From Alphaproteobacteria bacterium (GTDB lineage: Bacteria > Pseudomonadota > Alphaproteobacteria > RF32 > CAG-239), in NCBI GenBank assembly GCA_017471705.1, contig JAFUSH010000034.1:43934-107933 (forward strand): 64,000 nt of DNA, in the 5' to 3' direction. Under the pieces are notes generated by a model. The model worked only from the letters and a program-made list of their open reading frames with translations, made no database searches and was not told the DNA's origin. A program made the translations under genes and the position numbers. Below are positions 9,432 through 48,923 of this stretch, one piece after another; position 1 is the stretch's first letter; each line of letters opens with the position of its first letter.

Positions 9432-9456
9432 TCAAACAATGTAAGATTTCTGAGAT

Positions 9457-31552: not shown

Positions 31553-31571
31553 ATACATCAGGATAAAACAG

Positions 31572-32240: not shown

Positions 32241-34538
32241 CTAAACTAGCTGAGTTTTATAAAGAGCGGCATATTCACCTTCTTTAGCCAGAAGTTTTTC
32301 GTGTGAACCGCGTTCAACGATTCGTCCGTTATTAACAACCGCTATATAATCGGCATTACGCACTGTCGAAAGACGGTGAGCTATAACCAGTACCGTGCGG
32401 TCTTTCATCAGATTATCGATAGCCTGTTGTACCACCGCTTCAGATTTATTATCTAAAGCTGACGTCGCTTCATCTAAAATCAGAATAGGGGCATTTTTGA
32501 TAAAAGCGCGGGCAATGGCGATTCGTTGTTTTTGTCCACCGGAAAGCATTACTCCGCGTTCACCGATTTGTGTATCGAGTCCGTTTTCCAAACTGTTAAC
32601 GAACTCTTCCAAACAGGCGGATTTGATAGCTCGATTCAATTGTTCATCACTGATATCTTGGCGATCGAAAATAATATTTTCCCTGATAGTTCCTCCGAAC
32701 AGGAAATTATCCTGAAATACAACGGCGATATTCTCACGCAAATTGCACAAATCAATGTCTTTGGTGTTTATACCGTCGATGGTAATTTCACCGTGATGGA
32801 TGTCATAAAATCTCGGTAACAGCATCGCAATGGTACTTTTTCCGCCGCCGGAATTTCCGACTAAAGCAACGGTTTGCCCCGATTTTATGTTCAGATTTAT
32901 GTGATTAAGCACATATTTGCCTTTAACGTAAGAAAACGTAACATCTTTGAAAGATATATCACCGTTGCATTTTTCCAAAAACACAGGATTTTCGGCATTA
33001 ATCACTTTAGGTTTGTAGTTGAGCGTTTGGAATACGCGCTCGACCGCCATCAACGACATAATAACTCCGCTAAGATTATTTCCGATTGACTTAAGCGGAT
33101 TATACAGCATTACCAGTGAAGTTATGAACGAGACAAAATTACCGACGGTAATTTGATGTTGAGTTATCAAATAACTGCCGTACCAAATTACCAGAGCAAT
33201 GCCGCAAGCCGAGATAGTGTGCATTAAAGGTGCGACAACACCGATTTTTTTCATCATTACCATCAGCATATTCATCATTCCGTCAGTTGTTTGCTTGAAT
33301 TTTTCCTTATAGATTTTGGATAAATTATAGGCGCTTACTATCCGGTTTCCGCCGAATATTTCATTAAAATGAGCATAGAGAGCTGCTATAAAGTTAACGT
33401 CCTGTCTAACAGCAGTTTTCAATTTTTTCCGCATTTGCGTAACCGGATAAAAAGTCAAAATCAGAATGACAATGGCAACAATTGCCAGTTTCCAAGAGTT
33501 ATACAAAAGCACTATAATGAGTGATATTGAAGAAAAAAAACGCGTGGAAAATAAACGCATACTGTTGAGTAGTCCGCCGCAAGCCATTTCGGCATCGCGA
33601 TTAAAACGCATCAATACCATTCCGGAATCGGTCTTATCAAAGAATGAAGCGTCGTTATGTACCAGCCTGTCAAATAGTTTTCTCTTAATATCCAGTGCAA
33701 TTCGGTTACCCACCCAAGTGTTCATATAAGTAGCAATATAGGTGAACACAGCTTGCAAAACACTAAAAGTAATAATCATCAGCGGAATATAACTTGTCCA
33801 GCCAGTCTGCTGTTCAACTAACACTACATCCATAAATGGTTTTAATGACCACGCTATAACCGCATCCATAGAGCCGATGGGAATGGTTATGCCTACAGCT
33901 AATACGGCTCTAATCCAATAAGGTTTGGCGTAAGGCAATATAAGCGAATAGTTTTTTAACGAATAAATAGACAGCATTTTTTGCTTAATTTTGTCACGTA
34001 TTAGATAACATACAAAAATAAGCAACAAAATTCCCAAATAAACACCGGCAACAATTCCGAAACGAAGAAGTTTAAAAACAGAAGTGTTTTGCGGATAACA
34101 ATTACGGCATAATTCTATTTGCGTTATATCCGTAACGTCAAAAGAAATATTATTGGAGCTGTTGTTAATCACTTTTAATTTATCGTCTGTCGGTTGCATA
34201 TCGGTAAGATGGATTCCTTGCAAAAACACGTCGGAAATATGCAACGAGCCTGTATAATGTTTTATGGTAACATCTATATTTTTAATTTCCGGAGTATTGA
34301 TTTTGATTTTCTGCAGAACAGGCTGACCTTCCAACTGCGGATATACGGAAATAACATTTTTATCATCATCATTATAAGTATATGTTATATCAACATAAGG
34401 TTCGCCTTTGCCGTTTAAGAAAAAAGACAAATTTAAATCATTCGGACCATACCAAAAGCAAAAAGTTGCTCCGATAAATAACAAAAAGCCACCTAAAGTG
34501 TATGCAATAATTTTCAACAAGTACGATTTATTTCTCAT
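32241..34538 (-). CDS. ABC exporter, fused TMD-NBD (MsbA/ABCB type), with an extra ~180-aa N-terminal TM plus extracytoplasmic domain
   Basis: Walker A GNSGGGKST, signature LSGGQKQRIAIARA, Walker B ILILDEATSALD. The 6-TM exporter domain is preceded by an additional N-terminal module. Confidence 0.8.
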   Translation of the reverse strand: MRNKSYLLKIIAYTLGGFLLFIGATFCFWYGPNDLNLSFFLNGKGEPYVDITYTYNDDDKNVISVYPQLEGQPVLQKIKINTPEIKNIDVTIKHYTGSLHISDVFLQGIHLTDMQPTDDKLKVINNSSNNISFDVTDITQIELCRNCYPQNTSVFKLLRFGIVAGVYLGILLLIFVCYLIRDKIKQKMLSIYSLKNYSLILPYAKPYWIRAVLAVGITIPIGSMDAVIAWSLKPFMDVVLVEQQTGWTSYIPLMIITFSVLQAVFTYIATYMNTWVGNRIALDIKRKLFDRLVHNDASFFDKTDSGMVLMRFNRDAEMACGGLLNSMRLFSTRFFSSISLIIVLLYNSWKLAIVAIVILILTFYPVTQMRKKLKTAVRQDVNFIAALYAHFNEIFGGNRIVSAYNLSKIYKEKFKQTTDGMMNMLMVMMKKIGVVAPLMHTISACGIALVIWYGSYLITQHQITVGNFVSFITSLVMLYNPLKSIGNNLSGVIMSLMAVERVFQTLNYKPKVINAENPVFLEKCNGDISFKDVTFSYVKGKYVLNHINLNIKSGQTVALVGNSGGGKSTIAMLLPRFYDIHHGEITIDGINTKDIDLCNLRENIAVVFQDNFLFGGTIRENIIFDRQDISDEQLNRAIKSACLEEFVNSLENGLDTQIGERGVMLSGGQKQRIAIARAFIKNAPILILDEATSALDNKSEAVVQQAIDNLMKDRTVLVIAHRLSTVRNADYIAVVNNGRIVERGSHEKLLAKEGEYAALYKTQLV

Positions 34539-34597: not shown

Positions 34598-35032
34598 TCA
34601 GATGATTTCTCTATCCCTTTTAAGCATTACCTTGTTTAAATCAACCGAACACCGCTCAATTGTTTTTACACCGTATTCGTTGGGAAATTCGGCGGAAAAT
34701 ACTTTGCAGAAATTGTCAAGAGCCTTATCTTTTGTCATTTTAGGATTTTTTTGCTGCACTAATTTTATGTATTTGTTCATAATCATATACAGCTTGTCAT
34801 TGGTCGACAGATTATTATTCATTATTGCGTGGCTGCTGCCGATGGCGGCTCCCAGATTTATACTGGTCGGATTAACTCGCAGATCTTGATTTTTTCGTTC
34901 CAAAAAAGTGCGTTTGTCGTGCGAATCATCAATGGCCTCTTTAGCCAATTGCACAAGTTTTTTCTCATCATCAGCCATCATATCAAGCTTGAGGATGAAT
35001 TTTAACCCTTCGGTATTCTTCTTATCAGTCAT
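34598..35032 (-). CDS. hypothetical protein (144 aa)
   Basis: ORF only. No recognisable motifs. Confidence 0.4.
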   Translation of the reverse strand: MTDKKNTEGLKFILKLDMMADDEKKLVQLAKEAIDDSHDKRTFLERKNQDLRVNPTSINLGAAIGSSHAIMNNNLSTNDKLYMIMNKYIKLVQQKNPKMTKDKALDNFCKVFSAEFPNEYGVKTIERCSVDLNKVMLKRDREII

Positions 35033-35219: not shown

Positions 35220-36188
35220 ATGAGCAGAATTAATGACGTGTTTTATTCGGATATATACATTACGCCGGAGAAAATGATGTTTGTACCGGATCCGAATACG
35301 GAATGCGGTTTGATGCAGATATTTCCGGAAGATTTTGACGATTTTTATTCTTTATTGGAGAGAGCGTATGATAAGAATCCCAGTTATTCGATAATTTATG
35401 AAGGATTCTTTTTCCGTGTTGAGCGTTCTGTTTCTATGTACGGTATTACTTTCTGTATGCGTAAAATGCCAAAAAAGGTTCCGGACTTGGATATTTTGGG
35501 CTATCCGCCGGCATTGATTGATTATCTGGCAGGTTTAGGCAAGGCATCGGGATTGATTTTACTATGCGGTGCTACCGGTTCGGGAAAGACAACCACCATA
35601 TCCAGTTTGTTACGTGAATATTTAATTCAGCACGGCGGTTTTGCCTACACTATTGAAGATCCGTTTGAAATGCCTTTGGATGGTGAATATAAGGCAATGA
35701 ACGGTTCTATAGGTGTGTGCAAACAAACTCAGCCGATTAACGATGATTGGGGGGCTTCGCTCCGTTCAGCTTTACGTTCTCGCCCTCGTTACATTATGGT
35801 GGGTGAGATTCGTAATCCGGCAGCCGCCAGCGAATGTTTGCGCGCTGCAACATCAGGTCACCTCGTGCTTTCCACAATTCACGCCAATAATGTTGCCGAT
35901 GCGATTGACGCCATTGTTAAGCACGCTTCCGCCGGTGAAATGAGTGAAGATTTGGCATTTGACTTGTTGTCACGCGGAATTTTGGGAATTGTTCACCAAG
36001 CGCTTATCGGCACCGGTCAAAAACGTCCGGTAGTGCAGTATTTGTTTGCTAATCCGAATACCACTAAAGGGGATCAAACCAGAAACATTATCAAGACCGG
36101 AAAAATTAACGTATCTACAACCATTGAAATGCAGATGACGCGTATGGCACAAGGGCGCCCGCTGTTTGATAAGCCGGAAATAGGCTAA
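35220..36188 (+). CDS. PilT/BfpF/VirB11-family hexameric secretion ATPase (short form, 322 aa)
   Basis: Walker A CGATGSGKTTT, Asp box YTIEDPFEMPL, Walker B YIMVGEIRN, His box GHLVLSTIHANN. Confidence 0.7.
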   Translation: MSRINDVFYSDIYITPEKMMFVPDPNTECGLMQIFPEDFDDFYSLLERAYDKNPSYSIIYEGFFFRVERSVSMYGITFCMRKMPKKVPDLDILGYPPALIDYLAGLGKASGLILLCGATGSGKTTTISSLLREYLIQHGGFAYTIEDPFEMPLDGEYKAMNGSIGVCKQTQPINDDWGASLRSALRSRPRYIMVGEIRNPAAASECLRAATSGHLVLSTIHANNVADAIDAIVKHASAGEMSEDLAFDLLSRGILGIVHQALIGTGQKRPVVQYLFANPNTTKGDQTRNIIKTGKINVSTTIEMQMTRMAQGRPLFDKPEIG

Positions 36189-36191
36189 AGT

Positions 36192-36743
36192 TTATTGGAA
36201 ATTCCATATAATGGTATTTTCTGTCGGCTGGCATACGTCGCGAGCCGCATATTTTGCCACGGGTAAGAAATGCTTGTCACCGTCCCATTCAAAATCAGTA
36301 GAGCCTTTTGAGTTTATTACAGTTATTTTCTGTAAGCTGAGCAGCTGTTCTTTGTTTGCTTTGGTTTCAACTAAACCTATACAGGCTGATTTATTTACTC
36401 CCGCCAAAACTATATCAAAAGTTAAATCTGACGGTAACGCGGTATTACCGTCGACTCCTATTCCGATTTTAAAATCATATTCAGTGTGTCTGAGCAATTC
36501 ATCGCTTACCAATTTATCGTCAATCGCCGTTTCGGTATTCAATTTCCAATAATTGGGATAATCGCGATAATATGCGTGGATATTATCGGCAGTTTGAAAA
36601 ATATGCTCGTGCAGCTTTTGATAAGGGTTGTGCAATAACAGGTAAATCAATGTAATCAAGACCAAGAACAACGATATTATTATAATTAATCCGTTATAAT
36701 TTGTCAGCCTGAGCCTTCTTAAATCTACATACAATTTACTCAT
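36192..36743 (-). CDS. candidate type IVb prepilin-like protein (PilS position); start taken at MSKLYV
   Basis: An 18-aa basic leader ending in G, followed by a ~20-aa hydrophobic segment (NYNG|LIIIISLFLVLITLIYLLL). The C-terminal half contains two Cys ~50 aa apart. It is the last gene of the pil-like operon, after the platform gene. It lacks the canonical Glu5. Confidence 0.35.
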   Translation of the reverse strand: MSKLYVDLRRLRLTNYNGLIIIISLFLVLITLIYLLLHNPYQKLHEHIFQTADNIHAYYRDYPNYWKLNTETAIDDKLVSDELLRHTEYDFKIGIGVDGNTALPSDLTFDIVLAGVNKSACIGLVETKANKEQLLSLQKITVINSKGSTDFEWDGDKHFLPVAKYAARDVCQPTENTIIWNFQ

Positions 36744-36744
36744 A

Positions 36745-37866
36745 TTATGCTTTACCCATAGAACTCGTGATTTGATCCTGCATATCGAAGGTACCGAACA
36801 CCGCCCAAGCAATAACCGCGGATACGAACAGCATTGCCACAACGTTCATTATTTCGGCTTTTTGTTCAATCATATAAACCGAATCTTCCAACCAGTCATT
36901 AGCCAATTTATCAAGCGCTTCTTCAAAGTTATCCAATTCGGAGTATATTTTCAAATCAGATATGACCTGCTTATCAGGAAATTCCTGACCGGCTTTAGCC
37001 AACGCCTGCCCCAAGTTATCACCGTTTTTAATATGGAACAAAGCTCCGTCGATGCGGTCACGAAGATATTTGTTGGCATCTTTTCTTAAAGAAGAAAGAG
37101 CGACAGATACCGGAACACCGCCCTTTACCAAAGCGGATAAAGCCAAAAGCCAAGTAATTCCGGTGAATATTTTATATAAAGACCACGGCGGAAAACGGTC
37201 AAATTTAACTCTGATTTTACCCGACCAGAAACCGATGGTTATATAAATTACCGAACCTATGGCAGGGAAAAAAGCGAAAGCGGCAATCCAGTTTTTCTGA
37301 ATCCAGCCTGATAAATCAACCAAAGAACGAGCCGTACCGGTCCAAATGGTATCCGGCGCCGCGCTGAGCATCGGAGGTACCATATATACACCGATAGCAT
37401 ACAAAATGAGAACGGAAGCCATCAATAAGAAGGAAGGGTACGCAATAGCACTCACAATCGGACGAATCATACGGGTTGAGCCTTCACTAACTTTAATAAG
37501 GTTTAATAAGGCGCTTTCCAAATCGGAAACATCACCCACCGAAAGCATTAAGCGCTCGCGGTTAGGCGCCCATCCTTTAAGAGCATCGGAAAACGGATGA
37601 CCTTCCTGCAGAGCGCGTCCCCAAGCGCTGACGGCAATAGCCATAGGCTCATTCGGACTTTGACCCTCATCGGATAAACCGTTGTAAATCATATCAAGAG
37701 CATTCATCAATGAAAAACGGTTACGCAGTAAGGCTGCTAATTTGCGATAGATTTTAAGACGCCCTTTGTTAGAAAAATTGCACATAAATTTTGCATAACC
37801 CATCAACCACTCGTTGGTGTTCATCATCGCACGGCTAAAGGCACTTTTTTTCTTTATTTCAGGCAT
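36745..37866 (-). CDS. GspF/PilC-family inner-membrane platform protein (R64 PilR / BfpE / TcpE-like)
   Basis: 373 aa. Two T2SSF-like repeats with 3 TM segments (AYPSFLLMASVLILYAIGVYMVPPM). Adjacent to the GspE-type ATPase. Confidence 0.7.
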   Translation of the reverse strand: MPEIKKKSAFSRAMMNTNEWLMGYAKFMCNFSNKGRLKIYRKLAALLRNRFSLMNALDMIYNGLSDEGQSPNEPMAIAVSAWGRALQEGHPFSDALKGWAPNRERLMLSVGDVSDLESALLNLIKVSEGSTRMIRPIVSAIAYPSFLLMASVLILYAIGVYMVPPMLSAAPDTIWTGTARSLVDLSGWIQKNWIAAFAFFPAIGSVIYITIGFWSGKIRVKFDRFPPWSLYKIFTGITWLLALSALVKGGVPVSVALSSLRKDANKYLRDRIDGALFHIKNGDNLGQALAKAGQEFPDKQVISDLKIYSELDNFEEALDKLANDWLEDSVYMIEQKAEIMNVVAMLFVSAVIAWAVFGTFDMQDQITSSMGKA

Positions 37867-37877
37867 ATTTCAAACTC

Positions 37878-39689
37878 CTAATAAATCGGACGCTGATCAA
37901 GCAAACCGCACCAACGCTCTACCTCGTCAATATCAATATAGCCTTTGAGCATTCGCTCAATTGCGGCATCCCTGAGCGGACGACCGTTCAATTCACTGAC
38001 CCAATAGTCAATAGCTTCTTTAGTATTTCCCTCAATCATCAAATGTAAGAAGTGGGCATCCGGCAAAATGATTTCCGGAACGGACATACGACCTATAACT
38101 CCCTTACCGTTGCAGTATTTACATCCTTCGCCGCGCATATAGGTGTTTTCCACACCGAAGTCGCCCAAAGCGGTTTTTAAACGTTTATAAGCCGCGGAAG
38201 ATTTTTTATCTTTAATCGAAACTCGGCAATAAGGACAAATCTTTCGGAATAATCGTTGAGAAACAAGACCTTTCATAATTTCAGGATCTTCCAACATATA
38301 ATGACGCACACCCATATCACGCAAACGAGTGATAATCGCCGGTGCCGAGTTGGCGTGCAGTGTCGTCCACACACTGTGACCTGACAAAGCGCCGCGGAAC
38401 ACCAGTGAAGCTGCTGATAACGTACGAATTTCGCCGACCATTAAAACATCAGGGTCTGAACGAAGTGCTGCTGACAGGGCTTTTGTAAACTCTTCATCTT
38501 TTTCTTCTTCGGTGGAAGCATTGGTAACCGGCATTTGTCTTGCTCCCGGAATCGGGTACTCAGGCGGGTCTTCCACGGTAATAACGTTAATTTCTCCTTT
38601 GTGTTCCTGCAGTAATTTAATCATATTGCGTTGCAAGGTGGTTGACTTACCTGAACCGGTAGGTCCGGCAATAACTTTAAGCCCTGTGGCATTGGCACGC
38701 AAACGATAGAACAAATCAAGTTCTCGGGTACCCAAACCCAGTGAACGCAAATCACTCTCACCGTTAGGGTTATCATCAGCGTACAACAAACGCATTACCA
38801 AATATTGCGAACCGAATGCAATAGGGTTGAACTGCAAACGAATAGCCAAAATGTTATGAGGTAATCTCAACTTACCATTGGTACCGCGTAAAGGTGTTGA
38901 ACCTAATTTTTGTGCGCCCTGAAATTCATTTTTGGCATAGTTGGCATCGGAAATATCGGCAGAAGCAAATGCGGCACGCACAAACGCCTCTCCCCATTCC
39001 TTAGAGTATTCAAGCTCGCGCTCCATCATACCGTTTATACGGAACAAAATAAGAGTAGAATCGGCAACTACAACGTGAATATCGGAAACTTTATGAATGG
39101 CTGCACGGGATATAACACTCAAAAAGTCGATTTGCATCTGGTAGTCAGATGTCTCTTCGGCAGAGATGTTAATTTGTCCCATACCGCGCTCGGCATAGGC
39201 ATATATGGCAGATATTTCGGCAGCAGAAAAATATCTCGGAGTTGCAACCGGAATTTTACGCCGCTTCATCGTGGCGACAAAGTTAAGCACTTTACCGTCA
39301 TATTTGTGAGCCTCATCGACAATATACGTACCGTCGGAAAACAACGCCAGCATATGACGAGTTTCGCTGTCAACACTGACCGGTCCGTTTTCAACGGTTA
39401 TAAGTCTGTTGTCGTTGGAAAAAAGCATTTGAAAAAGATTCTGGTTCTCCGCAGCATCTTCGGCAGAATCATCAATAATATCCTCATTTTTTCGTCTTAC
39501 CGGTGCATTTTGCACGGCGAGCTCGCCGGAATCTGCTTTAGCTACGTCCTTATCATTATCTTTTTTCTTTTTATTTGCACTGTCCGGCAAAGCATCTCCG
39601 GCGGGTTTTTCACTGTCGGAATTCCCTAAAATCTTGGATATGTCTTCGTCAACTACGACAACATCATTATTTTTATTTTCTTCAACCAT
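37878..39689 (-). CDS. GspE/PilB-family pilus assembly ATPase with C-terminal tetracysteine zinc motif (R64 PilQ-like)
   Basis: Walker A GPTGSGKSTT, Asp box ITVEDPPEY, Walker B VLMVGEIRT, His box GHSVWTTLHANS, and CPYC...CKYC. Confidence 0.85.
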   Translation of the reverse strand: MVEENKNNDVVVVDEDISKILGNSDSEKPAGDALPDSANKKKKDNDKDVAKADSGELAVQNAPVRRKNEDIIDDSAEDAAENQNLFQMLFSNDNRLITVENGPVSVDSETRHMLALFSDGTYIVDEAHKYDGKVLNFVATMKRRKIPVATPRYFSAAEISAIYAYAERGMGQINISAEETSDYQMQIDFLSVISRAAIHKVSDIHVVVADSTLILFRINGMMERELEYSKEWGEAFVRAAFASADISDANYAKNEFQGAQKLGSTPLRGTNGKLRLPHNILAIRLQFNPIAFGSQYLVMRLLYADDNPNGESDLRSLGLGTRELDLFYRLRANATGLKVIAGPTGSGKSTTLQRNMIKLLQEHKGEINVITVEDPPEYPIPGARQMPVTNASTEEEKDEEFTKALSAALRSDPDVLMVGEIRTLSAASLVFRGALSGHSVWTTLHANSAPAIITRLRDMGVRHYMLEDPEIMKGLVSQRLFRKICPYCRVSIKDKKSSAAYKRLKTALGDFGVENTYMRGEGCKYCNGKGVIGRMSVPEIILPDAHFLHLMIEGNTKEAIDYWVSELNGRPLRDAAIERMLKGYIDIDEVERWCGLLDQRPIY

Positions 39690-39698
39690 AATTGCCTT

Positions 39699-41327
39699 TT
39701 ATTGTACAAATGTTCCCGAACCGAAAGAAAGATTTCCGTTAGTTTTTTTCGGTTGCTTTATCAACACCGGAGCATTTTCATCGACAGCGCCTTTACCAAA
39801 AGTATTCGAAAAATTACCTTTAATTATTTGTTTGTCGGTTTGCTCAGGAGTCTTATCCGAACCGTTGAAAGTTACCATCGGTTCATATTCCATTACAGTG
39901 CCTCCGGTATATAAGTAGCTCTGAACCCCGTTATTGTCAAATGAAATATAATGATCTGTGATAGAAGTAACCACTTCTCCGTTTCTAAGCTTAGATCCTT
40001 TGTGAATTATGAAAGTACTGCCGTCGCGGCTTACGAGTTTGGCAATGACGTCGTCGCCTTTTCCCGTAATATCCATAATTGCATAGTCTTTAGACATATC
40101 AATCGCATCTTCGCCCGGAGTACCGTTATCCGAGAAAGGATTGGAAAGTTGTTTGATTTCATCTTCTCTTTCGAGCATAGAAGACTTCAGTTGATTAATA
40201 TTGTTATTCAGAAGTTCCATTTTATGATTGAAAACTCTAACTGAATTTTCGCTCAAAGTTTCCAACTCCGCCGTTTTGGCATTGAGTTGAGATATCTTGT
40301 CAAGAGAAGCACTTTGGAGAGCTGCTTTTTCTTCTTCAAGCTCGTGTATTCTCTTTTGCAATTCTGCATTTTTAGCCACCCATTGCTGGTTAACTACCAA
40401 CATTTCGTTCATATAGTCTTTCACTATTTGAGCCTGACGAACTTTTTCCAGTTCTATTTCTTTTTGCTTTAATTTTTCTTGTTCGGCGACAATCATTGCC
40501 TGACGCTCTGCCTCCATATCTTTAGCTCTTTCTTCTTCAGCCTTCATTCTCAAATCTTCTTCCTGCTGAGCTTTCAGACGAGCGGCACGTAAAGCTTCAA
40601 CCTTGCTTTTCAACTCCTCTCTGCGTAATTCCAGACGCAATAAGGTGGTTTGTTTTTCAATATTCGACATTTGATTAAATAAATCGTTGTCTACTTTTGA
40701 AAGCACGGAGTTGCCGAAACTTTCGAAAGGCGATTTTGCTTCACCGATTTCCGGAATTACATCATCTACTTCCGCCGTAGAGTCAATTTGCGCCTTATTG
40801 GCATCTGTTTCCAACGAATCGAGACTGTCATCATCAGGGAAAGGCTGAACATCCAACAGCGGAGACGGAACCGCGGCCGGTTTTTCCATTGACGGCTTTT
40901 CATCAACTTTTTTGCCGGCAATCGGTAAATCGGAGTTCATCGGTAAATCAGCAAGATTGTCTTGCTTAGGAGCAAATGTTTCTTCAGGTGAAACTTCATT
41001 GAGAAAATTCAAATCATCAGTATCTTCACCTTCAGTCTCATCTTCAGATGTTAAATCTTCTGCCGGAGCAACCGGAATCTCGTCCTTAACTTCCGGAAAT
41101 TTCTCTTCGGAACCGTCAGATGATATATCAATATCCTGATTTTCTTCGGCACTGTCGTCCGCAATTTCATCAAGCCCCAATAACTCATCACTGATATCTA
41201 CATCGGCGGCTGCCTGATTTGCCGAAGGTATCTCTTCTTTGGCATAACCGGTACCGATACCCGCAACTGTTATTATAAAAGCGCAGGCAATAAGTACTGT
41301 AATTTTATTATTCAGGTTGTTTTTCAT
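39699..41327 (-). CDS. secreted acidic coiled-coil protein with a C-terminal beta-rich domain (PilP-like position)
   Basis: Signal peptide, a ~200-aa acidic low-complexity region, ~180 aa of coiled coil, and a C-terminal ~130-aa domain. It sits between the PilO-like gene and the ATPase, as in the R64 pilO-pilP-pilQ order. Confidence 0.35.
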   Translation of the reverse strand: MKNNLNNKITVLIACAFIITVAGIGTGYAKEEIPSANQAAADVDISDELLGLDEIADDSAEENQDIDISSDGSEEKFPEVKDEIPVAPAEDLTSEDETEGEDTDDLNFLNEVSPEETFAPKQDNLADLPMNSDLPIAGKKVDEKPSMEKPAAVPSPLLDVQPFPDDDSLDSLETDANKAQIDSTAEVDDVIPEIGEAKSPFESFGNSVLSKVDNDLFNQMSNIEKQTTLLRLELRREELKSKVEALRAARLKAQQEEDLRMKAEEERAKDMEAERQAMIVAEQEKLKQKEIELEKVRQAQIVKDYMNEMLVVNQQWVAKNAELQKRIHELEEEKAALQSASLDKISQLNAKTAELETLSENSVRVFNHKMELLNNNINQLKSSMLEREDEIKQLSNPFSDNGTPGEDAIDMSKDYAIMDITGKGDDVIAKLVSRDGSTFIIHKGSKLRNGEVVTSITDHYISFDNNGVQSYLYTGGTVMEYEPMVTFNGSDKTPEQTDKQIIKGNFSNTFGKGAVDENAPVLIKQPKKTNGNLSFGSGTFVQ

Positions 41328-42555
41328 AGATTTCTCCTTTGTAAGTCCACATTCCGGAATTAATGTCGTATGTTATAGTATCAACCGTTAATCCTGAAAA
41401 TTTCATTAATAAATCACTCCAAATCAGCGGATCGTTGTTTGATGATATTGAATAAGCCATCAGTTTATATTTTGTACCGCGCGGTGACATCCAAGTTTTA
41501 GGACCGAATGATATACTTATTCCCAAAGATTGATTAATATCATTTAACACGTTTATCAAATCTTCTTCATCATATTCCGGAGGTGAATTCAATTTGGTGA
41601 TTTCACCTATCGGAACCGATACCATAACAGTACTGCCGTCTCGTCCCAAAACGCGCGATGAAAATTCAACGCCGGATACATTAAGCGCTTGTTCAATCCA
41701 AGTTAATCTTCCGAGGTCACGGCGCCAAGAAGTCACAACCCCCGCATTCGGTGTACAGGTAATACCTTCAATATGCCACCCCGGAGTGACCACCTGCACG
41801 ACCTTTTTGGTAGTCAAATAACACTGACGCATAACGTCTAAAGGATTATTTAGCTCTACCCAAGGCTTAGGTTCCGGCGGCAAAGGCGGTTCTTTTACTT
41901 CAACGGGTTCTATAACCGGTTCTTCCGGCGCGGTGAAAAATAAGTCTTTCAGGGTAGAATAACCGAACCATAAGATAACGGCAAAGCAAACAACTATAAC
42001 TCCCAGCATTAATGTATCATTGCTGGCGTTGATTTTTGCCAACCTTGTTTGGATACCTTTTTCCAACATAGGTCCCAAATGGTCAGCTTTGGTATCTTCT
42101 ATTCCCCAATCGGCCGGTGCGAATATAATGTCCCAATCCGGTACGGCTAACATTGCGATAAGCTGGTTTTTAGCATCTTTCTCGTTGATGAATAAAGTAT
42201 CACCGTCCGACAATATAACTTCGTTTCTGAAACATATATACCACCAACCGGTATCAACTTTGAATACGCCCAAGAAAGAAGTAACGGCTCCCAGACCGGT
42301 AATAAGAGATACCGCAGCAGAAGGCAATCCGGGGGTGAAACCTTGAGAGGAAGCGGCTAAACCGAACTGAGACGATTTACCTTTACGGGTAACGTACAAA
42401 TCTGCGCCTTCCAGAATATTTTCTGCGGCCTCCTTTACTTCCGGCAAAGGCTTTGCTTCGTTTAACAGCGGTTGCCAGAAAAGACTCGCGGCGTAAGTTA
42501 TCCCTCTTTCGGTGAAAGATGATCTCCAAGCCTTATCTTCAGTTTGATCTACCAC
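41308..42555 (-). CDS. bitopic pilus assembly protein (R64 PilO / GspL-like topology)
   Basis: A ~190-aa cytoplasmic domain, a single TM (LMLGVIVVCFAVILWFGY), a Pro-rich linker and a ~180-aa periplasmic domain. Located between the secretin and the PilP-like gene. Confidence 0.4.
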   Translation of the reverse strand: MVDQTEDKAWRSSFTERGITYAASLFWQPLLNEAKPLPEVKEAAENILEGADLYVTRKGKSSQFGLAASSQGFTPGLPSAAVSLITGLGAVTSFLGVFKVDTGWWYICFRNEVILSDGDTLFINEKDAKNQLIAMLAVPDWDIIFAPADWGIEDTKADHLGPMLEKGIQTRLAKINASNDTLMLGVIVVCFAVILWFGYSTLKDLFFTAPEEPVIEPVEVKEPPLPPEPKPWVELNNPLDVMRQCYLTTKKVVQVVTPGWHIEGITCTPNAGVVTSWRRDLGRLTWIEQALNVSGVEFSSRVLGRDGSTVMVSVPIGEITKLNSPPEYDEEDLINVLNDINQSLGISISFGPKTWMSPRGTKYKLMAYSISSNNDPLIWSDLLMKFSGLTVDTITYDINSGMWTYKGEIYEKQPE

Positions 42556-42571
42556 TTGCTCTCTCCTTAAA

Positions 42572-44194
42572 CTAATCGTTCATTCTGGATTCAGGTGATA
42601 ACGGCGATTCCAAAACAACCGGTGTTAACATAATAACAAGAATGGTTCTGGCTTTTTCAGCTGATTGCGAACCGCCTAACAGCATATTTTCAGGAGTTCC
42701 CACACCTTTTTTATCAACAGAATCTTCAACGCGTTCATAACCTGCCAAAATCAGCGTTTCACCCGATTTCATCGCAACTTCCTGTGTAAATCCGCGGGTT
42801 TCGATTACAGGGTTCTGAATGGATTCGGAATCACCGCCGCCTTCTTCACCGCCTCCGCTGACCGTAATGGTATCAAGCGACAGCAAGTCAGACAGTGTCA
42901 GGTTGAAAAACATTAAGATACGACCGTGATCCAAAATTCTCGGCAATACACTCATAGTGAAACCGGTTTCAATTTCCTCGGTATCGACGGAAACATCATA
43001 AGTATCACTGTCACCGCTGTTGGTCTTGGTAATTTGTGAAATGTAGTTTTGCGTTTTAACAACTTGAATCGGAGCCGGTTTATTGTTCATAGTCGTAACC
43101 GTACCGCTGGTAACCAAATTGGTTTGACCTTCTTGAGATAATGCCTGCATTGCGGCATCAACGCTCCAACTCTTGCTGCTGACAGCCATTGTCAAGTCAC
43201 TTAAAGCATTACCCAAATCACCCGGATGGGTTCCGGCAGTTACGCCTTTAATGCTACCGCGTTTATCAAAAGTTGCCGTTAAATCCAAATTATATTTATC
43301 GGCATTTGATATACTGAGCTGAATAACTTTTACGCTGATGGCGACTTGTTTGGATACACGATTATTTTGCTCATTGATATATTTTGCCACACGACGGATA
43401 TCTGTCGGTGTTGATGTAAGGTTAATAGTACCGCTTGCCTTATCAATATTAAGATTTGCATCTTGTGAAATCATAGATTGAATGGTGCTTTCCAAATTGC
43501 TCCACAAATCGAGTCCGTCAATAGAGCTGCTTTGCGAAATGCTGGAAGCACCTGCATCGGCACCGCCCACACTGACGCTCAAAGAAGGGCTTGTCGGTAA
43601 CGAATAAATTACAAAAGTTTTGGTAATAAACTTATAAAAATAAATTTCACCTTTTTCATATTTCCACCAAATACCGAAGCGGTTGGCAACTTCATCCAAT
43701 AAACCGCTCATCGGACCTTTGTAGTTGACAATCATTTTGGTCGAATCGGTCCATTGAGTGCCGATTTCATCCATAGAAGGTTTATTGCTGTCGGCCTGAG
43801 AAATAGCTGTTTCTTCAAGTTCAGGAGCATAACGAACCGAAAGAGAAGTGATTTTACTTATCATTGAACCGATTTCATACAAAGTAATAGGACGGTTGCT
43901 GATTAAAGTAATACCATCTTTCTTTTCCAAATAGGTCGGGATAGGTTCGCCTTCAAATTCAATTTTGGATGTGTCGCCGAGCCAAATATCGTTCTTAACT
44001 CTTACCACATCGTCAGGAATAGGCTCGGTAGGCATTGCTGCTTTCTGTTTTAAGTCCAAGGTATCCTTGGCACGCTGCGCCATTTCCCTGTCCATTTCCG
44101 GAGAGATGGAACAAGCTACCGTAATTCCTAAGATGCACAGTGTTAATAGTTTAAATATATTAGTCGTACGCATTTTCGTCCTCCATTGTTTCAA
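42572..44194 (-). CDS. secretin lipoprotein (type IVB pilus PilN/BfpB/TcpC family)
   Basis: Lipobox LGITVAC. The C-terminal secretin domain reads ETLILAGYERVEDSVDKKGVGTPENMLLGGSQSAEKARTILVIMLTPVVL. It lacks the N0-N1 GspD-type N-domain arrangement, consistent with T4bP lipo-secretins. Confidence 0.75.
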   Translation of the reverse strand: MKQWRTKMRTTNIFKLLTLCILGITVACSISPEMDREMAQRAKDTLDLKQKAAMPTEPIPDDVVRVKNDIWLGDTSKIEFEGEPIPTYLEKKDGITLISNRPITLYEIGSMISKITSLSVRYAPELEETAISQADSNKPSMDEIGTQWTDSTKMIVNYKGPMSGLLDEVANRFGIWWKYEKGEIYFYKFITKTFVIYSLPTSPSLSVSVGGADAGASSISQSSSIDGLDLWSNLESTIQSMISQDANLNIDKASGTINLTSTPTDIRRVAKYINEQNNRVSKQVAISVKVIQLSISNADKYNLDLTATFDKRGSIKGVTAGTHPGDLGNALSDLTMAVSSKSWSVDAAMQALSQEGQTNLVTSGTVTTMNNKPAPIQVVKTQNYISQITKTNSGDSDTYDVSVDTEEIETGFTMSVLPRILDHGRILMFFNLTLSDLLSLDTITVSGGGEEGGGDSESIQNPVIETRGFTQEVAMKSGETLILAGYERVEDSVDKKGVGTPENMLLGGSQSAEKARTILVIMLTPVVLESPLSPESRMND

Positions 44195-45143
44195 CTACCA
44201 GAACTCGGTTGCCTTTATAGAAGGTTGCAACCGGAGCCGGTCTGGCGCGTGCAAATGCTCTTATCAGTGCGGAAGCCACATCGGCAAAATTTCCTCTGAA
44301 CATAGCGCCGGCATTTAAAGTGTAGTTACGATTCGTTTTCCAAATCAATCTCCATCCGGCTTCATCGCTCCACATAGTCAGAAGTTCTTTAAGGCTCTGT
44401 CCTTCTTCTGCTAACCAATCCTTATTGGCTGAACTTTCCTCAGATGCTTCGTCATCACCGTCTTGAATATTTCCCCCTTGAGCAATATTTCCTTGTGTGC
44501 CGCCGGTAGTATTAGAAACGGTATATCCGTTTTGTACATATTGAGGTTGTCCTGCAACTGCCGGAGTGTTCGCATAAGCTGCTTGCCCCTGTCTGCCGTT
44601 TACCGGAACCTGTCTGCCGGCTGTCGGAACTTGTCCTCCTCCGACTGTAGGAGCCGTTCCGCCGTTTGCAGTTACCATCGGAGCATTGCCGTTTGCCGCG
44701 GGAGCAGCTCTTCCGTTATGCGGAATCGGAGCCGCCGGATTCCACGATTGATCATATCCGTTGTCAGCGATAACGCTGTTTTCGTATTCCACCACTTCAT
44801 TATCTATGCTCGGCGGAATAGCCGCAGATATATTATTTCCGGCGCCCGCTTGTGTAATACGATGATCTCGAGGCGAACGTTCGCCGTATCCACGAAAATC
44901 TGCAGCACCGCGAGTATAATTTATGTTGCCGGCATCACTGCATTCGCTGTAACCGTCGGCATTTTCAACGCAAACCGCCGTATATTCTCGATTACTGGTG
45001 CAGATGCCGTTTTCGCATTCTTCTTCCAGATAGCTTCTGTTGCTGAGGGCGCCGATACAGCCCGACGTGCTTAAAATGCAACAAATTAAGCCGGTAACAG
45101 CCAGTTTGTTTGTTATTATTTTTCCTTCAAATTTATTTCTCAT
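44160..45143 (-). CDS. PilL-like lipoprotein with C-terminal TcpQ-type domain
   Basis: Lipobox LSTSGC. A Gly/Asn/Ala/Pro-rich linker. The C-terminal ~90 aa reads DWLAEEGQSLKELLTMWSDEAGWRLIWKTNRNYTL...FRGNF, resembling the TcpQ/PilL domain. It is immediately upstream of, and overlapping, the secretin. Confidence 0.55.
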   Translation of the reverse strand: MRNKFEGKIITNKLAVTGLICCILSTSGCIGALSNRSYLEEECENGICTSNREYTAVCVENADGYSECSDAGNINYTRGAADFRGYGERSPRDHRITQAGAGNNISAAIPPSIDNEVVEYENSVIADNGYDQSWNPAAPIPHNGRAAPAANGNAPMVTANGGTAPTVGGGQVPTAGRQVPVNGRQGQAAYANTPAVAGQPQYVQNGYTVSNTTGGTQGNIAQGGNIQDGDDEASEESSANKDWLAEEGQSLKELLTMWSDEAGWRLIWKTNRNYTLNAGAMFRGNFADVASALIRAFARARPAPVATFYKGNRVLVVETMEDENAYD

Positions 45144-45191
45144 CGTATTTTCCTATAATACACGTTAAAATTGAAATATCAACATCGGATT

Positions 45192-46841
45192 CTAATACCA
45201 AGGATTATCGGCTCGTTTCATTGCCTTTATCTTGTCATCTTCCGATGCGTATCGTACATTCCTAATAATAAATGAGTTTGGCTCCCTATCGGTAAAAATT
45301 ATGTTAATTTTATGATAATCAACACCATTATTGGCCAAAATCTTGTACAACAGCTTTAAACGCTTTTCCTGCAAAGCGTACGGAGCTGTCTTGTCTATCC
45401 TTATTTCGATAAACACATCTTCGTTTTTCACCGAATTATCTGCGAAAGCGTGTAGCCATTCAAGAGTTTGACCGGAAATTTCCGCCCGATTCGGCTGAAA
45501 AGATAATTTTAATTCGGAAGGAGTAATGTTATCATCATTGCTACCCCCGATGCCTAAAAGCTTATTAAATATTGAACCTTCGCTTTTTTGAGATTTTTTA
45601 TTGTTATTTTTACTTTGAGTTTTCGGAGCAGTGATATTATCGTTACCGGTCTTCTTTTTAGAACCTGAAAACCACTCGGCGATACTGTCCGATAAACTTT
45701 TAGAAGTTTCTTCGTCTGCATCGACATCATCGTCTTCTTCAAAATCTTGAAAATCATCGTCGTTATCATTGTTTGATTTGGTACTTGATGAATTATCAAA
45801 ATATTTATCATCATCTAAGGCCGGAAGTGTGTGTTTGGCACGCAGTTCGCGCTCTAACTTCAAATTTTCTTCCGAAGATGAAAATTGCGGTGTCAGATTA
45901 CGCTCATTCGCAATGTTTTCCGGTATGGGAATGACTAAATTTTTTTGCATTCTGTATTCTTCGGTCGGTTGCTCAATAACTTCCTGATCCGGAGAAATAA
46001 TGTTATCTTGATGCTTTGCCGCGTAAACATTAGCGGAATTTTCCTCAGATTTTTTATTCGAAGTCTCTGCAACTTCCCACGGATTTGTATATCCTTCGTC
46101 GGAAGAAGATAGGCCGGCCGAAAATTCGGATTTCCCAATATATCCGTCGTTATTTACCAACGGTTCGGTCACAGCCGCATAGGTATCGGCTCCCAAATTA
46201 TCGGTACTTACGCCGCTTGAAGCCATAGCAATTTGGTTTTCATCGGCACTGTCCGAAAATACTACAGTTCCGTTTTCCGTTTTATAGTGGTGTACCAAAG
46301 GAATTCTGAAAACCGGAGCTTCAGAGGCATCGGCTATTTGCAATTCTTCGGATTCTTCTTTCGTTTCAGCCACCTCTAAAACAGAAGAATTTTCAGCATC
46401 AGCTATGTCTAAGATAGAGGCATCTTCAATACGCAAATCATCGTTGTCCGAAACCTTAACTTCGGCGGACTTTTCATCTAATTCGGTATAATCGGTAGTT
46501 TCTGGTCGGTATAGCACTGTATCGGAAGAACCTGATTTGACGCTTTGATTTGAAATCAATTTATCTTCATCGTTATACGGCAATTCATTATGTTGTTCCA
46601 AACTTTTGAATTTGTCATATAACGGATCATTTTCTTCATTGGCGGCAAAAAGCTCAATATTTTGAGCCGGCAAATTTTCAATATATTCTTCCGTCGGTCC
46701 GTTTTCATTCAAAGACAAAACAAAATAAGCCTTGGTAACCGAAAATACGGCAACCAGTGAGAGAATAAAGCTTCCTAAAAAGCATTTTAAACCAAGTTTA
46801 GGCATTCCAAAATCCCATACATTCATTAAAGGTATCGGCAC
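45192..46841 (-). CDS. membrane-anchored highly acidic low-complexity protein (549 aa), first gene of the pil-like operon
   Basis: N-terminal TM/signal anchor LGSFILSLVAVFSV, long D/E/S/N-rich stretches (DNDDDFQDFEEDDDVDADEE), and a conserved-looking ~100-aa C-terminal domain. Confidence 0.45.
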   Translation of the reverse strand: MPIPLMNVWDFGMPKLGLKCFLGSFILSLVAVFSVTKAYFVLSLNENGPTEEYIENLPAQNIELFAANEENDPLYDKFKSLEQHNELPYNDEDKLISNQSVKSGSSDTVLYRPETTDYTELDEKSAEVKVSDNDDLRIEDASILDIADAENSSVLEVAETKEESEELQIADASEAPVFRIPLVHHYKTENGTVVFSDSADENQIAMASSGVSTDNLGADTYAAVTEPLVNNDGYIGKSEFSAGLSSSDEGYTNPWEVAETSNKKSEENSANVYAAKHQDNIISPDQEVIEQPTEEYRMQKNLVIPIPENIANERNLTPQFSSSEENLKLERELRAKHTLPALDDDKYFDNSSSTKSNNDNDDDFQDFEEDDDVDADEETSKSLSDSIAEWFSGSKKKTGNDNITAPKTQSKNNNKKSQKSEGSIFNKLLGIGGSNDDNITPSELKLSFQPNRAEISGQTLEWLHAFADNSVKNEDVFIEIRIDKTAPYALQEKRLKLLYKILANNGVDYHKINIIFTDREPNSFIIRNVRYASEDDKIKAMKRADNPWY

Positions 46842-47030
46842 CGATAAGGCGCAAATATCCCACTATTTTGTTTGAAGATACAACTGATTGTGTTAAAATA
46901 GAGTTAATGATATAAATGAAAGTTGATAAGCCGGAAAAATGTTCAAAATACAGCGGCTGTTGCCATCTGTTTCTCGCGCACGCGCGCAATCTAATACCCT
47001 TGTAATCTGCGGAAAAATTTTGCTTTATAA

Positions 47031-47077
47031 AAAGTTCACAAAAAGTTCACAATTATTTTGCCGAGAATATGTTACAA
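47031..47077 (+). promoter_or_regulatory. tandem 10-bp direct repeat AAAGTTCACA x2 followed by an extended -10 (TGTTACAAT) in the pil/virB2 divergent region
   Basis: Exact tandem repeat at 47031-47040 and 47041-47050. TGnTACAAT lies at 47069-47077, upstream of virB2 paralog 1. Confidence 0.3.
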
Positions 47078-47309
47078 TCAATTTAACACTCAAAGAGTAT
47101 ACCGAAGTTAAACAGAGATATATTTCTTATCAGTTTATTAACCTTTTGGTGTTATTCGTGGTGTGTATAACTGGTGTATTGTAGAAATTTTTGTGAAAAT
47201 TCAGATTGATATAGACAAATGGGATATATTTTAACAAAAGTCTGGAAATTTTTTGTAAAATGATTTACAATAACAGTGTGATTAAGAATATATGTTAAGG
47301 AGAACTGAA

Positions 47310-47672
47310 ATGAAATTCTTAAAAAACAACATTATGAGCATTTTGGGTATGACCTTCTTATTTACGATGGTTATGCTGGGCGATGCAAACGCTACGGTGT
47401 TTGAAGATGTAAAAACAAAACTCGTAGATTTGTTCAAAAATGCTAAAATGGTAGTATTTATTATCGGTGGTTTCGGTTTGATTTGTTTGGCTTTCCAAGC
47501 AATCTTCGGAAAAGTTAAATGGGCTTGGTTTGCTGCTCTGGCTTTCGGTTTGGCCGTTGTGGCTGCTGCCGGTGCTATTATTAACTACGCTGCTAATAAC
47601 GATGTTGCTACCGGTAAGAACTTCTCAGATACATTGGGTGACGGTTCCGGTGCATCTAGTATGGGTCATTAA
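47310..47672 (+). CDS. virB2: VirB2/TrbC-family T4SS pilin, paralog 1
   Basis: Signal peptide followed by two hydrophobic helices separated by a short loop (VVFIIGGFGLICLAFQAIFG...WAWFAALAFGLAVVAAAGAI). AAGGAG RBS before the ATG at 47310. Confidence 0.7.
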   Translation: MKFLKNNIMSILGMTFLFTMVMLGDANATVFEDVKTKLVDLFKNAKMVVFIIGGFGLICLAFQAIFGKVKWAWFAALAFGLAVVAAAGAIINYAANNDVATGKNFSDTLGDGSGASSMGH

Positions 47673-47743
47673 TGCCAAGAATGATATTCGGGGGGAGCCC
47701 AGTCTCTCCCCGAATGTGGTAAAATTTTAAGGCGGAGGTAGAT

Positions 47744-48064
47744 ATGTTGTGCAATAGTATAAAGAGATTTTTGTACGAGAACAGATATGCAATTATCTTA
47801 TTTGTTTCTTTATTCTTTTTCATAACCGATGCCTCTGCTGAGACATTCGGTGCATTATCGACTGCCGGCACGGCAATTTTTCAGGGCTTGCGCAAAATTA
47901 TATATCCGGCGGCTACCATAGGTATAGCCTGTGTTTGTATCGGAGGTATGTTCGGCAGTTTTAACTGGAAGTGGTTAGTGGCAATTCTGTTGGGTGTGTT
48001 TATTATAGCCACGGCTAATTCCGGAAACGGTGTGGATGCTATTGCTATGGACGGCAGTAATTAG
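47744..48064 (+). CDS. virB2: VirB2-family pilin, paralog 2
   Basis: The same architecture (signal; ATIGIACVCIGGMFG...WKWLVAILLGVFIIA). GGAGG RBS. Confidence 0.65.
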   Translation: MLCNSIKRFLYENRYAIILFVSLFFFITDASAETFGALSTAGTAIFQGLRKIIYPAATIGIACVCIGGMFGSFNWKWLVAILLGVFIIATANSGNGVDAIAMDGSN

Positions 48065-48074
48065 GAGAATGCAG

Positions 48075-48473
48075 ATGAAAAGAATCGGCGTATTATGTTT
48101 TTTTATTTTAATTTGTTGTGTTGCTTTTGTTTCTCCGGCATTTGCCGAGCCTTCATCCGGTGATGCTATTTGGACTAAATTAGCTGGCAAGGCCAGTACT
48201 ATAGGGGTAGGTTTGCAGAAAAGCGGCTTTATTATAGGCGGTATCGGGTTAATCTTTTTTTCATTTATGGCAATTTTTAACAAGATATCGTGGAAGAATC
48301 TTGCCTATATTATGCTGAGCTGTTTTGTGCTTTCGGCAATGGTTGCATTGGTTAATTATTTTTCGGCAAAAGATGCAACCAGTACGGCTTCGTACTCAGA
48401 ATTTAACGGTCCTGACGGCGAGGTTTCTTTTGAAGGAGGCGTAGCTCCTGCCGGAGGGACGGCGCATAAATAG
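48075..48473 (+). CDS. virB2: VirB2-family pilin, paralog 3
   Basis: Signal MKRIGVLCFFILICCVAFVSPAFA and two hydrophobic helices. RBS AGGAGAATGCAGATG. Confidence 0.65.
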   Translation: MKRIGVLCFFILICCVAFVSPAFAEPSSGDAIWTKLAGKASTIGVGLQKSGFIIGGIGLIFFSFMAIFNKISWKNLAYIMLSCFVLSAMVALVNYFSAKDATSTASYSEFNGPDGEVSFEGGVAPAGGTAHK

Positions 48474-48482
48474 GGGAATATA

Positions 48483-48923
48483 ATGAGGTTGTTTGCTTGG
48501 CTGAGTGCTTTTTGTTTTTTTATATCGGTATCCCCTGCTATGGCATACATAGAAGAAGATACTGCCGGAATGACGGAAGCAGATGCCGGTGAGCAGAATA
48601 CCAATATGTATAAACTGAATGCACGCGGTGATTATTTTATCAAGAAACTGAAAAAAATAGATGAATATGCCAGTAAAAATAGTCGGTATGAAGTGCCTAA
48701 TCTGTCCGATATAAATGACATAAACAGTTTTGAACAAAAGAATAAGGAAGAAGAGCAAAATAAATTGATTTTAGCCGACGTGGTTAAAATGACGTCTAAT
48801 CCGCAACAACTGAAAGTTATTCTTAAATCCGATGTTTATACGTCATTGACGGCTATTAACGAAGTGCGCGATGCACAAGTTGCATCGGTATTGCAAAGAC
48901 AAATTGCCGGAGGACGCCGATGA
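48483..48923 (+). CDS. small secreted protein (146 aa) between the virB2 paralogs and virB3
   Basis: Signal peptide MRLFAWLSAFCFFISVSPAMA, then a hydrophilic Lys/Glu-rich body. It overlaps the virB3 start by 4 bp. Confidence 0.45.
   Translation: MRLFAWLSAFCFFISVSPAMAYIEEDTAGMTEADAGEQNTNMYKLNARGDYFIKKLKKIDEYASKNSRYEVPNLSDINDINSFEQKNKEEEQNKLILADVVKMTSNPQQLKVILKSDVYTSLTAINEVRDAQVASVLQRQIAGGRR

Follow-up and report, generated by a model that had tools for sequence, protein, structure and literature searches.

Type IVb pili of the R64 type are known as accessories of mobile conjugative elements. In the thin pilus gene set of R64 (IncI1), the genes run in the order pilL, pilN, pilO, pilP, pilQ, pilR and the pilin gene, and they encode a TcpQ-domain lipoprotein, a PilN-family secretin, a PAP_PilO protein, a PilP-domain protein, a tetracysteine GspE-type ATPase, a GspF platform and a pilin of the type IVb fold, with a type IV secretion system (T4SS) linked to the pil genes. 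Chromosomal R64-like pil clusters next to T4SS genes occur on integrative conjugative elements (ICEs) and genomic islands such as Salmonella Typhi SPI-7 (with its pilin PilS) and Pseudomonas PAPI-1 (pilL2-pilM2), and such islands move between genomes, insert at tRNA genes and are present in some strains but not in others. A TcpQ-domain protein and a lipoprotein secretin are also found in the toxin-coregulated pilus (TCP) of Vibrio cholerae, CFA/III of enterotoxigenic Escherichia coli and the bundle-forming pilus (BFP) of enteropathogenic E. coli, of which BFP includes the PilT-like retraction ATPase BfpF; R64-type pili, to our knowledge, classically have no retraction ATPase. Here we describe an eight-gene pil operon on the minus strand (36192-46841) in a 64,000-nucleotide stretch of alphaproteobacterial DNA from contig JAFUSH010000034.1 (the window). 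The operon has the R64 gene order, and it is likely a functional, vertically inherited type IVb (R64/PilS-lineage) pilus assembly operon in an uncultured gut or rumen alphaproteobacterium.

The nine open reading frames (ORFs) that an earlier note on this DNA had listed, the eight of the operon and an ATPase gene at its distal end, were all present where it had placed them. Because the spacers between the eight operon ORFs range only from -35 to +48 nt in the window coordinates, they appear to form a single operon; the secretin ORF, with a TTG start at 44194, overlaps the PilL-like gene by 35 nt, or by 14 nt if the secretin is called as a protein of 533 residues. A promoter and terminator scan of the locus gave nothing above shuffled expectation. 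The products were compared by BLASTP with those of the pil cluster of the Salmonella IncI plasmid pSal8934a (NC_019111.1). Since six of the eight products match R64-type components and the last one has a pilin fold, we read the cluster as a type IVb pilus machine, and the earlier proposal of an R64-type biogenesis set in pilL-N-O-P-Q-R-S order was borne out by profile, BLASTP and fold evidence.

The outer-membrane channel is represented by two lipoproteins. The PilN-family secretin (42572-44194, minus strand) matched the Secretin family PF00263 above the cut-off (67 bits, E 1.9e-18), and its best NCBIfam model was that of the PilN-family type IVB secretins, TIGR02520, with 272.9 bits, against 110.7 bits for MshL, 50.3 for GspD, 33.5 for PilQ and 31.8 for SctC. 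It is 29% identical to IncI PilN (E 1.7e-49), and its lipobox A27-C28-S29 was invariant across 13 homologues. The PilL-like lipoprotein (44160-45143, minus strand), a likely partner of the secretin, has a signal peptide that ends in ...STSGC and a C-terminal TcpQ domain (PF10671, 60.4 bits for a cut-off of 27, E 1.8e-16), and is 26% identical to IncI PilL (E 7.5e-9). The PilO-like protein (41308-42555, minus strand) is a bitopic inner-membrane assembly protein that matched PAP_PilO (PF06864, 57.2 bits for a cut-off of 26.7, E 1.8e-15); its strongest predicted transmembrane segment is at residues 181-199 with a second at 80-98, and BLASTP against IncI PilO reached an E value of only 0.016 at 21% identity.

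In the pilP position lies a protein of 542 residues (39699-41327, minus strand), with an N-terminal anchor, an acidic linker, a coiled coil and a C-terminal PilP/GspC (HR-type) domain, whereas R64 PilP has 150 residues. Because the C-terminal regions of 25 of 26 orthologues matched TIGR03021 (best E 1.6e-9) and hhalign paired the protein with IncI PilP (E 1.3e-4), by profile comparison it is a PilP/GspC-type domain on a long stalk and would be expected to contact the secretin. The GspC model matched 14 of the 26 orthologues, and BLASTP against IncI PilP aligned 49 residues at 35% identity (E 0.29). The first gene of the operon (45192-46841, minus strand) encodes a bitopic membrane protein with one N-terminal transmembrane helix and a long acidic linker. 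A fold search of its predicted model suggested an OmpA/Pal/MotB-like peptidoglycan-binding fold for the conserved C-terminal domain, and the gene probably adds an OmpA-like peptidoglycan anchor that is absent from R64. Neither Pfam searches of this domain on 27 orthologues nor hhalign comparisons with the IncI proteins and with E. coli OmpA produced a significant match, and PDB sequence searches with the PilP-like and the acidic first-gene proteins gave no meaningful matches.

The PilQ-like assembly ATPase (37878-39689, minus strand) belongs to the GspE/PilB family. It matched T2SSE with 215.8 bits (E 9.5e-64), scored 221 bits on the GspE model versus 185 on PilB, and is 28% identical to IncI PilQ (E 5e-44); it has the Walker A motif GPTGSGKST at residue 342, and the CxxC...CxxC motif noted earlier is present as CPYC485 and CKYC523. 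NCBI names this protein 'Flp pilus assembly complex ATPase component TadA', a name that its profile scores do not support because the TadA model gave 38.7 bits, far below GspE and PilB. The PilR-like polytopic platform of the GspF family (36745-37866, minus strand) matched T2SSF with 88.9 bits in two domains (E 3.3e-25), has four predicted transmembrane segments and is 25% identical to IncI PilR (E 8.8e-33). The secretin, TcpQ, T2SSE, T2SSF and PilO models named in the earlier note thus all gave matches, with TIGR02520 falling just below its trusted cut-off.

To compare the locus with its relatives, we ran a PilN alignment against a set in which each GTDB species is represented by a single genome. 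A PilN relative was encoded in 203 of these genomes, and the best 80 of the 203 (57-94% identity) were used. The best 80 are metagenome-assembled genomes (MAGs) recovered from the rumen and from the gut of humans, horses, chickens and rabbits. The names given to most of them are Alphaproteobacteria, proteobacterium, Rhodospirillaceae or Azospirillum; one is Candidatus Scatocola, placed in Rhodospirillales in the NCBI taxonomy, and a few bins have unrelated names. The related genomes probably belong to the GTDB order RF32. The proteins of the window itself occur unchanged in an NCBI MAG with locus tags IJ532_, on a contig of ~125 kb. All eight genes were found in 64 of the 80 loci, and the order and strand of the window were kept in every one of these (64/64), with identities from 22-72% for the pilin-like protein up to 66-96% for the platform. 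This identical order, together with the identity ranges, suggests long-term purifying selection. The G+C content of the operon (0.41-0.43, compared with ~0.40 for the window) shows no anomaly, no tRNA gene was found in the window, and the single integrase-family gene seen, probably XerC/D-like, lies ~1 kb beyond the left end of the window and ~35 kb from the cluster. Because the gene order is clade-wide, the G+C content is flank-like, the window has no tRNA gene and the integrase gene is distant, recent horizontal acquisition was rejected, and on this comparative evidence the pil cluster has long been inherited vertically within the lineage and is not a recent island. The question of ancestral or acquired origin raised by the earlier note is answered in the same sense by the G+C and gene-order comparison. 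In gene content as generally described, the SPI-7 and PAPI-1 clusters resemble the present locus as chromosomal R64-like pil genes next to T4SS genes; by their description they differ, since here there is no tRNA or integrase gene by the cluster and no shift in G+C content, and the cluster is fixed in the lineage.

The last gene of the operon, in the pilS position (36192-36743, minus strand), encodes a pilin-like protein with the type IVb pilin fold; its fold matches were filament-forming type IVb pilins, and BLASTP found no match to IncI PilS. The protein has an 18-residue leader that ends in an invariant Gly, and two invariant Cys residues. When it was examined as a PilS-type pilin, the pilin fold and Gly-1 were present and Glu+5 was absent, unlike IncI PilS, whose N-terminus is G|WGILE. 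Minor pilins of the GspK type dispense with Glu5, as there is no subunit above them. On the basis of this analogy, the Glu5-less pilin is probably a minor or tip (initiator) pilin, not the major subunit.

Canonical prepilins do exist in the lineage. In 16 related loci they are encoded directly after the Glu5-less gene; in a more distant subclade, one to three genes on the same strand (~210 residues each) stand between the Glu5-less gene and a PilT-like gene. The ~210-residue pilins carry a class III signal ...SGRS MVEMLGVLAIIGVLS, that is G|RSMVE with Glu+5, and C-terminal Cys residues. The prepilins of the relatives have the near-invariant N-terminus G|RSMIEMLGVLAIIGVLS, with a G|RSMIE form also present. 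A search with one subclade pilin returned thousands of relatives. Most among the matches listed carry precomputed Pfam PilS_N (PF08805) or Bundlin (PF05307) domains, or both, and in the PilS N-terminal domain they resemble SPI-7 PilS. A 22-residue pilin N-terminus, GRSMIEMLGVLAIIGVLSVGGI, was identical in 102 of the best 120 matches. Individual MAGs account for at least eight distinct paralogues each; across the pilin family the assembly helix hardly varies, while the heads do. In the five contexts inspected, the solo pilin genes of relatives are scattered among housekeeping genes, with three within 10-20 kb in two cases. A hidden Markov model (HMM) of the canonical pilins had the Glu5-less ORF as its sole match in the window (E 5.8e-5). 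The likely major subunits thus exist in the lineage, and in this genome they and any prepilin peptidase would be encoded outside the DNA read.

Some pilin genes of relatives stand at the edge of gene blocks that are shared with the window, namely LdcA-QueH-UvrA and AddA-AddB. The syntenic positions in the window (~9023-9641 and ~31552-32241) have no pilin gene and are occupied by other genes (trxA/L17 and a 175-residue membrane protein at 31608-32135). One relative's pilin paralogue adjoins ComEC, and another lies near a phage terminase gene.

Several R64 components were looked for and not found. With the IncI proteins as phmmer queries against the window and 1.65 Mb of related loci, there was no match with E < 0.01 for PilU, the PilV adhesin or shufflon, PilM, the PilT lytic transglycosylase or PilI/J/K, and when the non-window ORFs of the 80 loci were clustered, no further gene family proved to be conserved around the pil genes. 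Pfam scans of the larger ORFs in the window detected no prepilin peptidase, and none turned up in its +/-10 kb extension or in the five Pfam-annotated pilin contexts. The description of the gene set as complete in the earlier note therefore goes too far, as the pilin-position protein lacks Glu5 and the peptidase, the adhesin, PilM and the transglycosylase were not found; nor is pilM the only gene missing, since pilI/J/K, pilT (lytic transglycosylase), pilU and pilV are also absent from the window. Its observation that the window has no prepilin peptidase or PilV was right.

Based on these results, we propose the following model. The components of the assembly machine are established by sequence and structure evidence: the PilN lipoprotein secretin and the PilL TcpQ lipoprotein form the outer-membrane channel, the bitopic PilO and the PilP/GspC-domain protein join this channel to the inner membrane, and the PilQ ATPase with its zinc motif and the PilR platform are the assembly motor. 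The OmpA-like domain of the first gene product may anchor the machine to peptidoglycan. Canonical prepilins of the PilS/bundlin family, whose genes would lie beyond the 64-kb window, would make up the fibre after processing by a prepilin peptidase encoded elsewhere in the genome, with the Glu5-less pilin priming or capping it. A PilT-like ATPase encoded next to the operon may retract the pilus, and the pilus may bring a target cell into contact for the neighbouring VirB-type T4SS, as the thin pilus of R64 does for its conjugative T4SS and as type IVb pili of ICEs do.

A number of observations weigh against this model. The TIGR02520 score of the secretin, 272.9 bits, is 15 bits below the trusted cut-off of 287.65, and the PilP-like protein of the window scores by itself 15.8 bits on TIGR03021, for which the cut-off is 34.65. 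The OmpA-like fold of the first gene product comes from one single-sequence model of moderate confidence, with one of five models above a pLDDT of 50. The pilin HMM found no canonical major pilin in the window or in the +/-10 kb extensions. Likewise, no prepilin peptidase was found within +/-10 kb of the cluster in the 80 relatives, where the test on the raw loci, by single-sequence phmmer and clustering, was a weak one. A PilT-like gene is missing from the ~4 kb downstream that was covered in 18 of 57 loci. Finally, pilus retraction and coupling to the T4SS are read from family membership and gene linkage only.

The PilT-like gene (35220-36188, plus strand) encodes a hexameric ATPase that is a candidate retraction motor. 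The earlier note was right to place a PilT/VirB11-family ATPase at the distal end of the operon; its orientation is not divergent, as that note had it, but convergent, with the two stop codons 3 nt apart. The protein matched T2SSE with 109 bits and the pilT_fam, TraJ, DotB and VirB11 models with 122, 94, 80 and 54.5 bits, all four below the model cut-offs, and its best solved relatives were PilT (2e-23) and DotB (4e-20). The Cys motif found in assembly ATPases is absent from the protein, which carries QTRNIIKT, a motif that resembles AIRNLIRE. A PilT-like gene was found within ~4 kb downstream of the operon in 39 of 57 related loci; it is on the operon strand in 11 loci, and in 10 of these it directly follows canonical pilin genes. 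It is possible, though doubtful, that the ATPase serves the T4SS in a VirB11- or DotB-like role instead of retracting the pilus. The TraJ, DotB and VirB11 matches and the similarity to solved DotB would suit such a role, R64-type pili classically do without a retraction ATPase, and the T4SS DNA read shows no VirB11 gene. However, the T4SS cluster runs past VirB10, so that a VirB11 gene may lie further on, and the best matches of the protein are to PilT, with the AIRNLIRE-like motif. Moreover, its gene is separated from the T4SS genes by the whole pil operon and, where it shares the pil strand, mostly follows pilin genes. Retraction of the pilus is thus the reading we prefer for this ATPase.

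Beside the PilT-like gene, a 144-residue soluble protein with a weak DUF4806 match is encoded at 34598-35032 (minus strand), between that gene and an ABC exporter gene, and is conserved in the closest relative only (71%). The ABC exporter (ABC_membrane and ABC_tran domains; 32241-34538, minus strand) has an N-terminal extension of ~220 residues without annotation, and an exporter of this type adjoins the PilT-like gene in many related loci.

Comparison of model scores ruled out the type II secretion system (T2SS), Tad, MSHA and type IVa pili as identities of the cluster. T2SS membership was rejected as the GspD model TIGR02517 gave 50 bits on the secretin and the window has no GspG-K pseudopilin genes and no GspL/M, and Tad/Flp membership was rejected as the TadA-family score of 38.7 bits compares with 221 for GspE and no Tad component was matched. 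A best match to a T2SS or a Tad system, which the earlier note had named as the outcome that would overturn its view, was therefore not obtained. T2SS-like matches were limited to the GspE/F-family and GspC-like domains, which are common to type IV pili. A related explanation concerns function: the cluster might be a T2SS-like exporter in which the Glu5-less protein makes a short pseudopilus or piston in the periplasm, driving soluble proteins out by way of the secretin, and no surface pilus is built. The assembly ATPase does score best on GspE (221 versus 185 bits for PilB), 14 of 26 orthologues of the PilP-like protein match GspC as well in this domain, and the single pilin-like gene in the window lacks Glu5; secretion of soluble proteins is also known of type IVb systems, TCP and CFA/III among them. 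On the other hand, there are no GspG-K or GspL/M genes and no GspD-type secretin (50 bits for GspD versus 273 for the PilN family), canonical type IVb prepilins lie inside the cluster in 16 relatives, the pilin-like protein has the fold of filament-forming type IVb pilins, and a PilT-like ATPase is linked to the operon. We therefore consider an exporter improbable and retain the assembly of a pilus.

What the pilus does is a separate question, and it might mainly take up DNA (competence) instead of serving adhesion or T4SS-assisted contact. The linked PilT-like retraction ATPase and the ComEC-adjacent pilin paralogue would agree with DNA uptake, but the latter is one case of adjacency in a large set of scattered paralogues, the surroundings of the operon showed no ComEA, DprA or other competence genes, and the conserved neighbour is a T4SS and not competence genes, which leaves competence with little probability. 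It is very improbable that the cluster is a decaying, non-working remnant of an integrated conjugative element or plasmid (an IncI or PAPI-1/ICE-type pil and T4SS set): although the known pil clusters of the R64 type are nearly always carried by conjugative elements (2493 of 2991 plasmid matches were on conjugative plasmids) and several R64 genes were not found, all eight ORFs are intact here, and 64 of 64 species-level relatives have them intact and in unchanged order, the G+C content is flank-like, the window has no tRNA gene, the XerC/D-like gene is ~35 kb away, and an identity of 25-29% to the IncI proteins argues against recent transfer from known plasmids.

While the pil operon and R64 share gene order, the component families described above, the type IVb pilin fold and linkage to a T4SS, they are only 25-29% identical, and the genes are chromosomal and clade-wide here but plasmid-borne in R64. 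The partner T4SS is of the VirB type, unlike the Dot/Icm-like system of IncI plasmids; pilI/J/K, pilM, pilT (lytic transglycosylase), pilU, pilV and the shufflon were not found nearby; the PilP homologue has acidic and coiled-coil regions; and an OmpA-like anchor gene and a linked PilT-like ATPase gene are additional. TCP, CFA/III and BFP are more distant, as the matching PilO and PilP models and the gene order are R64-type, Tcp/Bfp/Cof-specific accessory genes were not detected, and the pilins form a large dispersed family of paralogues, compared with one major pilin gene in those systems. Thus, a kind of pilus known from mobile elements is here a fixed chromosomal feature of ~200 species-level genomes, and it differs from R64 in four respects: a VirB-type partner T4SS, a retraction-type ATPase, a probable peptidoglycan anchor and a large family of pilin paralogues.

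The T4SS genes (47292-51636, plus strand) are divergent from the pil operon and belong to a separate partner system rather than to the pilus machine. They are separated from it by 450 nt (46842-47291), presumably a control region shared by the pil operon and the virB2-virB4 operon, and of the 64 related loci in which the DNA upstream of the pil operon extends far enough, 56 have virB2 genes there in divergent orientation. Three VirB2-like pilin paralogues (47292-47672, 47744-48064 and 48030-48473, plus strand) matched TrbC/VirB2 PF04956 (4.4e-8, 1.6e-10 and 9e-7), VirB3 (48920-49210, plus strand) was matched weakly (0.0076), and VirB4 (49207-51636, plus strand) matched TIGR00929 (2e-112); an exported protein of 146 residues is also encoded among these genes. 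After virB4 come five exported or large ORFs (408-1553 residues) without a family match and with at most one transmembrane segment, then virB8, a 62-residue VirB7-like lipoprotein, virB8, virB9, two large ORFs and VirB10 (1412 residues). The five ORFs were considered as VirB6 paralogues and rejected, as they gave no VirB6/TrbL match and are not polytopic. No VirB6, relaxase or coupling protein was identified in the T4SS DNA read. The 1014-residue protein encoded between virB9 and VirB10 has DxDGNVIG-type repeats.

The hallmarks of the rvh T4SS are duplicated VirB8, VirB9 and VirB4, multicopy VirB6 and no VirB5 (PMC11077975). Of these, only the VirB8 duplication is evident here; VirB4 and VirB9 are each present as a single copy in the DNA read. 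The virB8-virB7-virB8 arrangement that the earlier note described is indeed present to the right of the operon, but its rvh-type assignment is not supported by the other hallmarks in the DNA read. The Rickettsiales-like, obligate-intracellular context proposed partly on this basis is not shown either: the best 80 relatives are gut and rumen MAGs, most of them labelled Alphaproteobacteria, proteobacterium, Rhodospirillaceae or Azospirillum, one of several rvh hallmarks was seen, and the window, which also encodes MurJ, AnmK, LdcA, UvrA, a sensor histidine kinase and ABC systems, has nothing that shows an obligate intracellular organism. The case cautions that rvh-like features in a T4SS are not proof of Rickettsiales or of an intracellular lifestyle. 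On the other hand, the remark that type IVb pili are undescribed in this group agrees with our literature searches on RF32, CAG-239 and Rickettsiales with type IVb pili, which found no description of such a system. The arrangement of an R64-like pilus with an adjoining T4SS is apparently new to the literature. It is less surprising than a type IVb pilus in an obligate intracellular bacterium, as first suggested, and its main value is as a handle on the lifestyle of the lineage.

Rumen RF32 MAGs have reduced genomes (1.59 Mb) and have lost amino-acid biosynthesis (PMC8199421), which suggests dependence on other cells. The locus offers a concrete hypothesis, open to testing, on the way in which these abundant but uncultured bacteria of the gut attach to partner cells and interact with them. 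A speculative and rather unlikely extension is that the pil operon, the PilT-like motor, the dispersed and expanded pilin repertoire and the VirB-type T4SS make up one lineage-defining contact apparatus, in which a retractile pilus, variable in its antigenic or adhesive properties, would reel in a partner cell, be it of another gut bacterium, of a protist or of the host epithelium; injection into the partner, or exchange of material with it, by the chromosomal T4SS would follow. If so, the apparatus would make a reduced-genome order of gut alphaproteobacteria obligate cell-associated epibionts, parasites or predators, and it would be the first case in which a pilus of the R64 type has been domesticated into a core organelle and paired with a VirB-type system.

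The analysis also corrects public annotation. In addition to the 'TadA' name of the assembly ATPase, VirB4 and two NCBI-named secretin homologues of related MAGs are labelled 'hypothetical protein'. Elsewhere in the window, an ABC ATPase gene (20778-21500) is followed by a gene for a 1156-residue fusion protein (17306-20776, minus strand) that combines an ABC-2 permease, DUF7088, ABC_transp_aux (GldG-like) and DUF4340, and the two appear to represent an uncharacterised export system.

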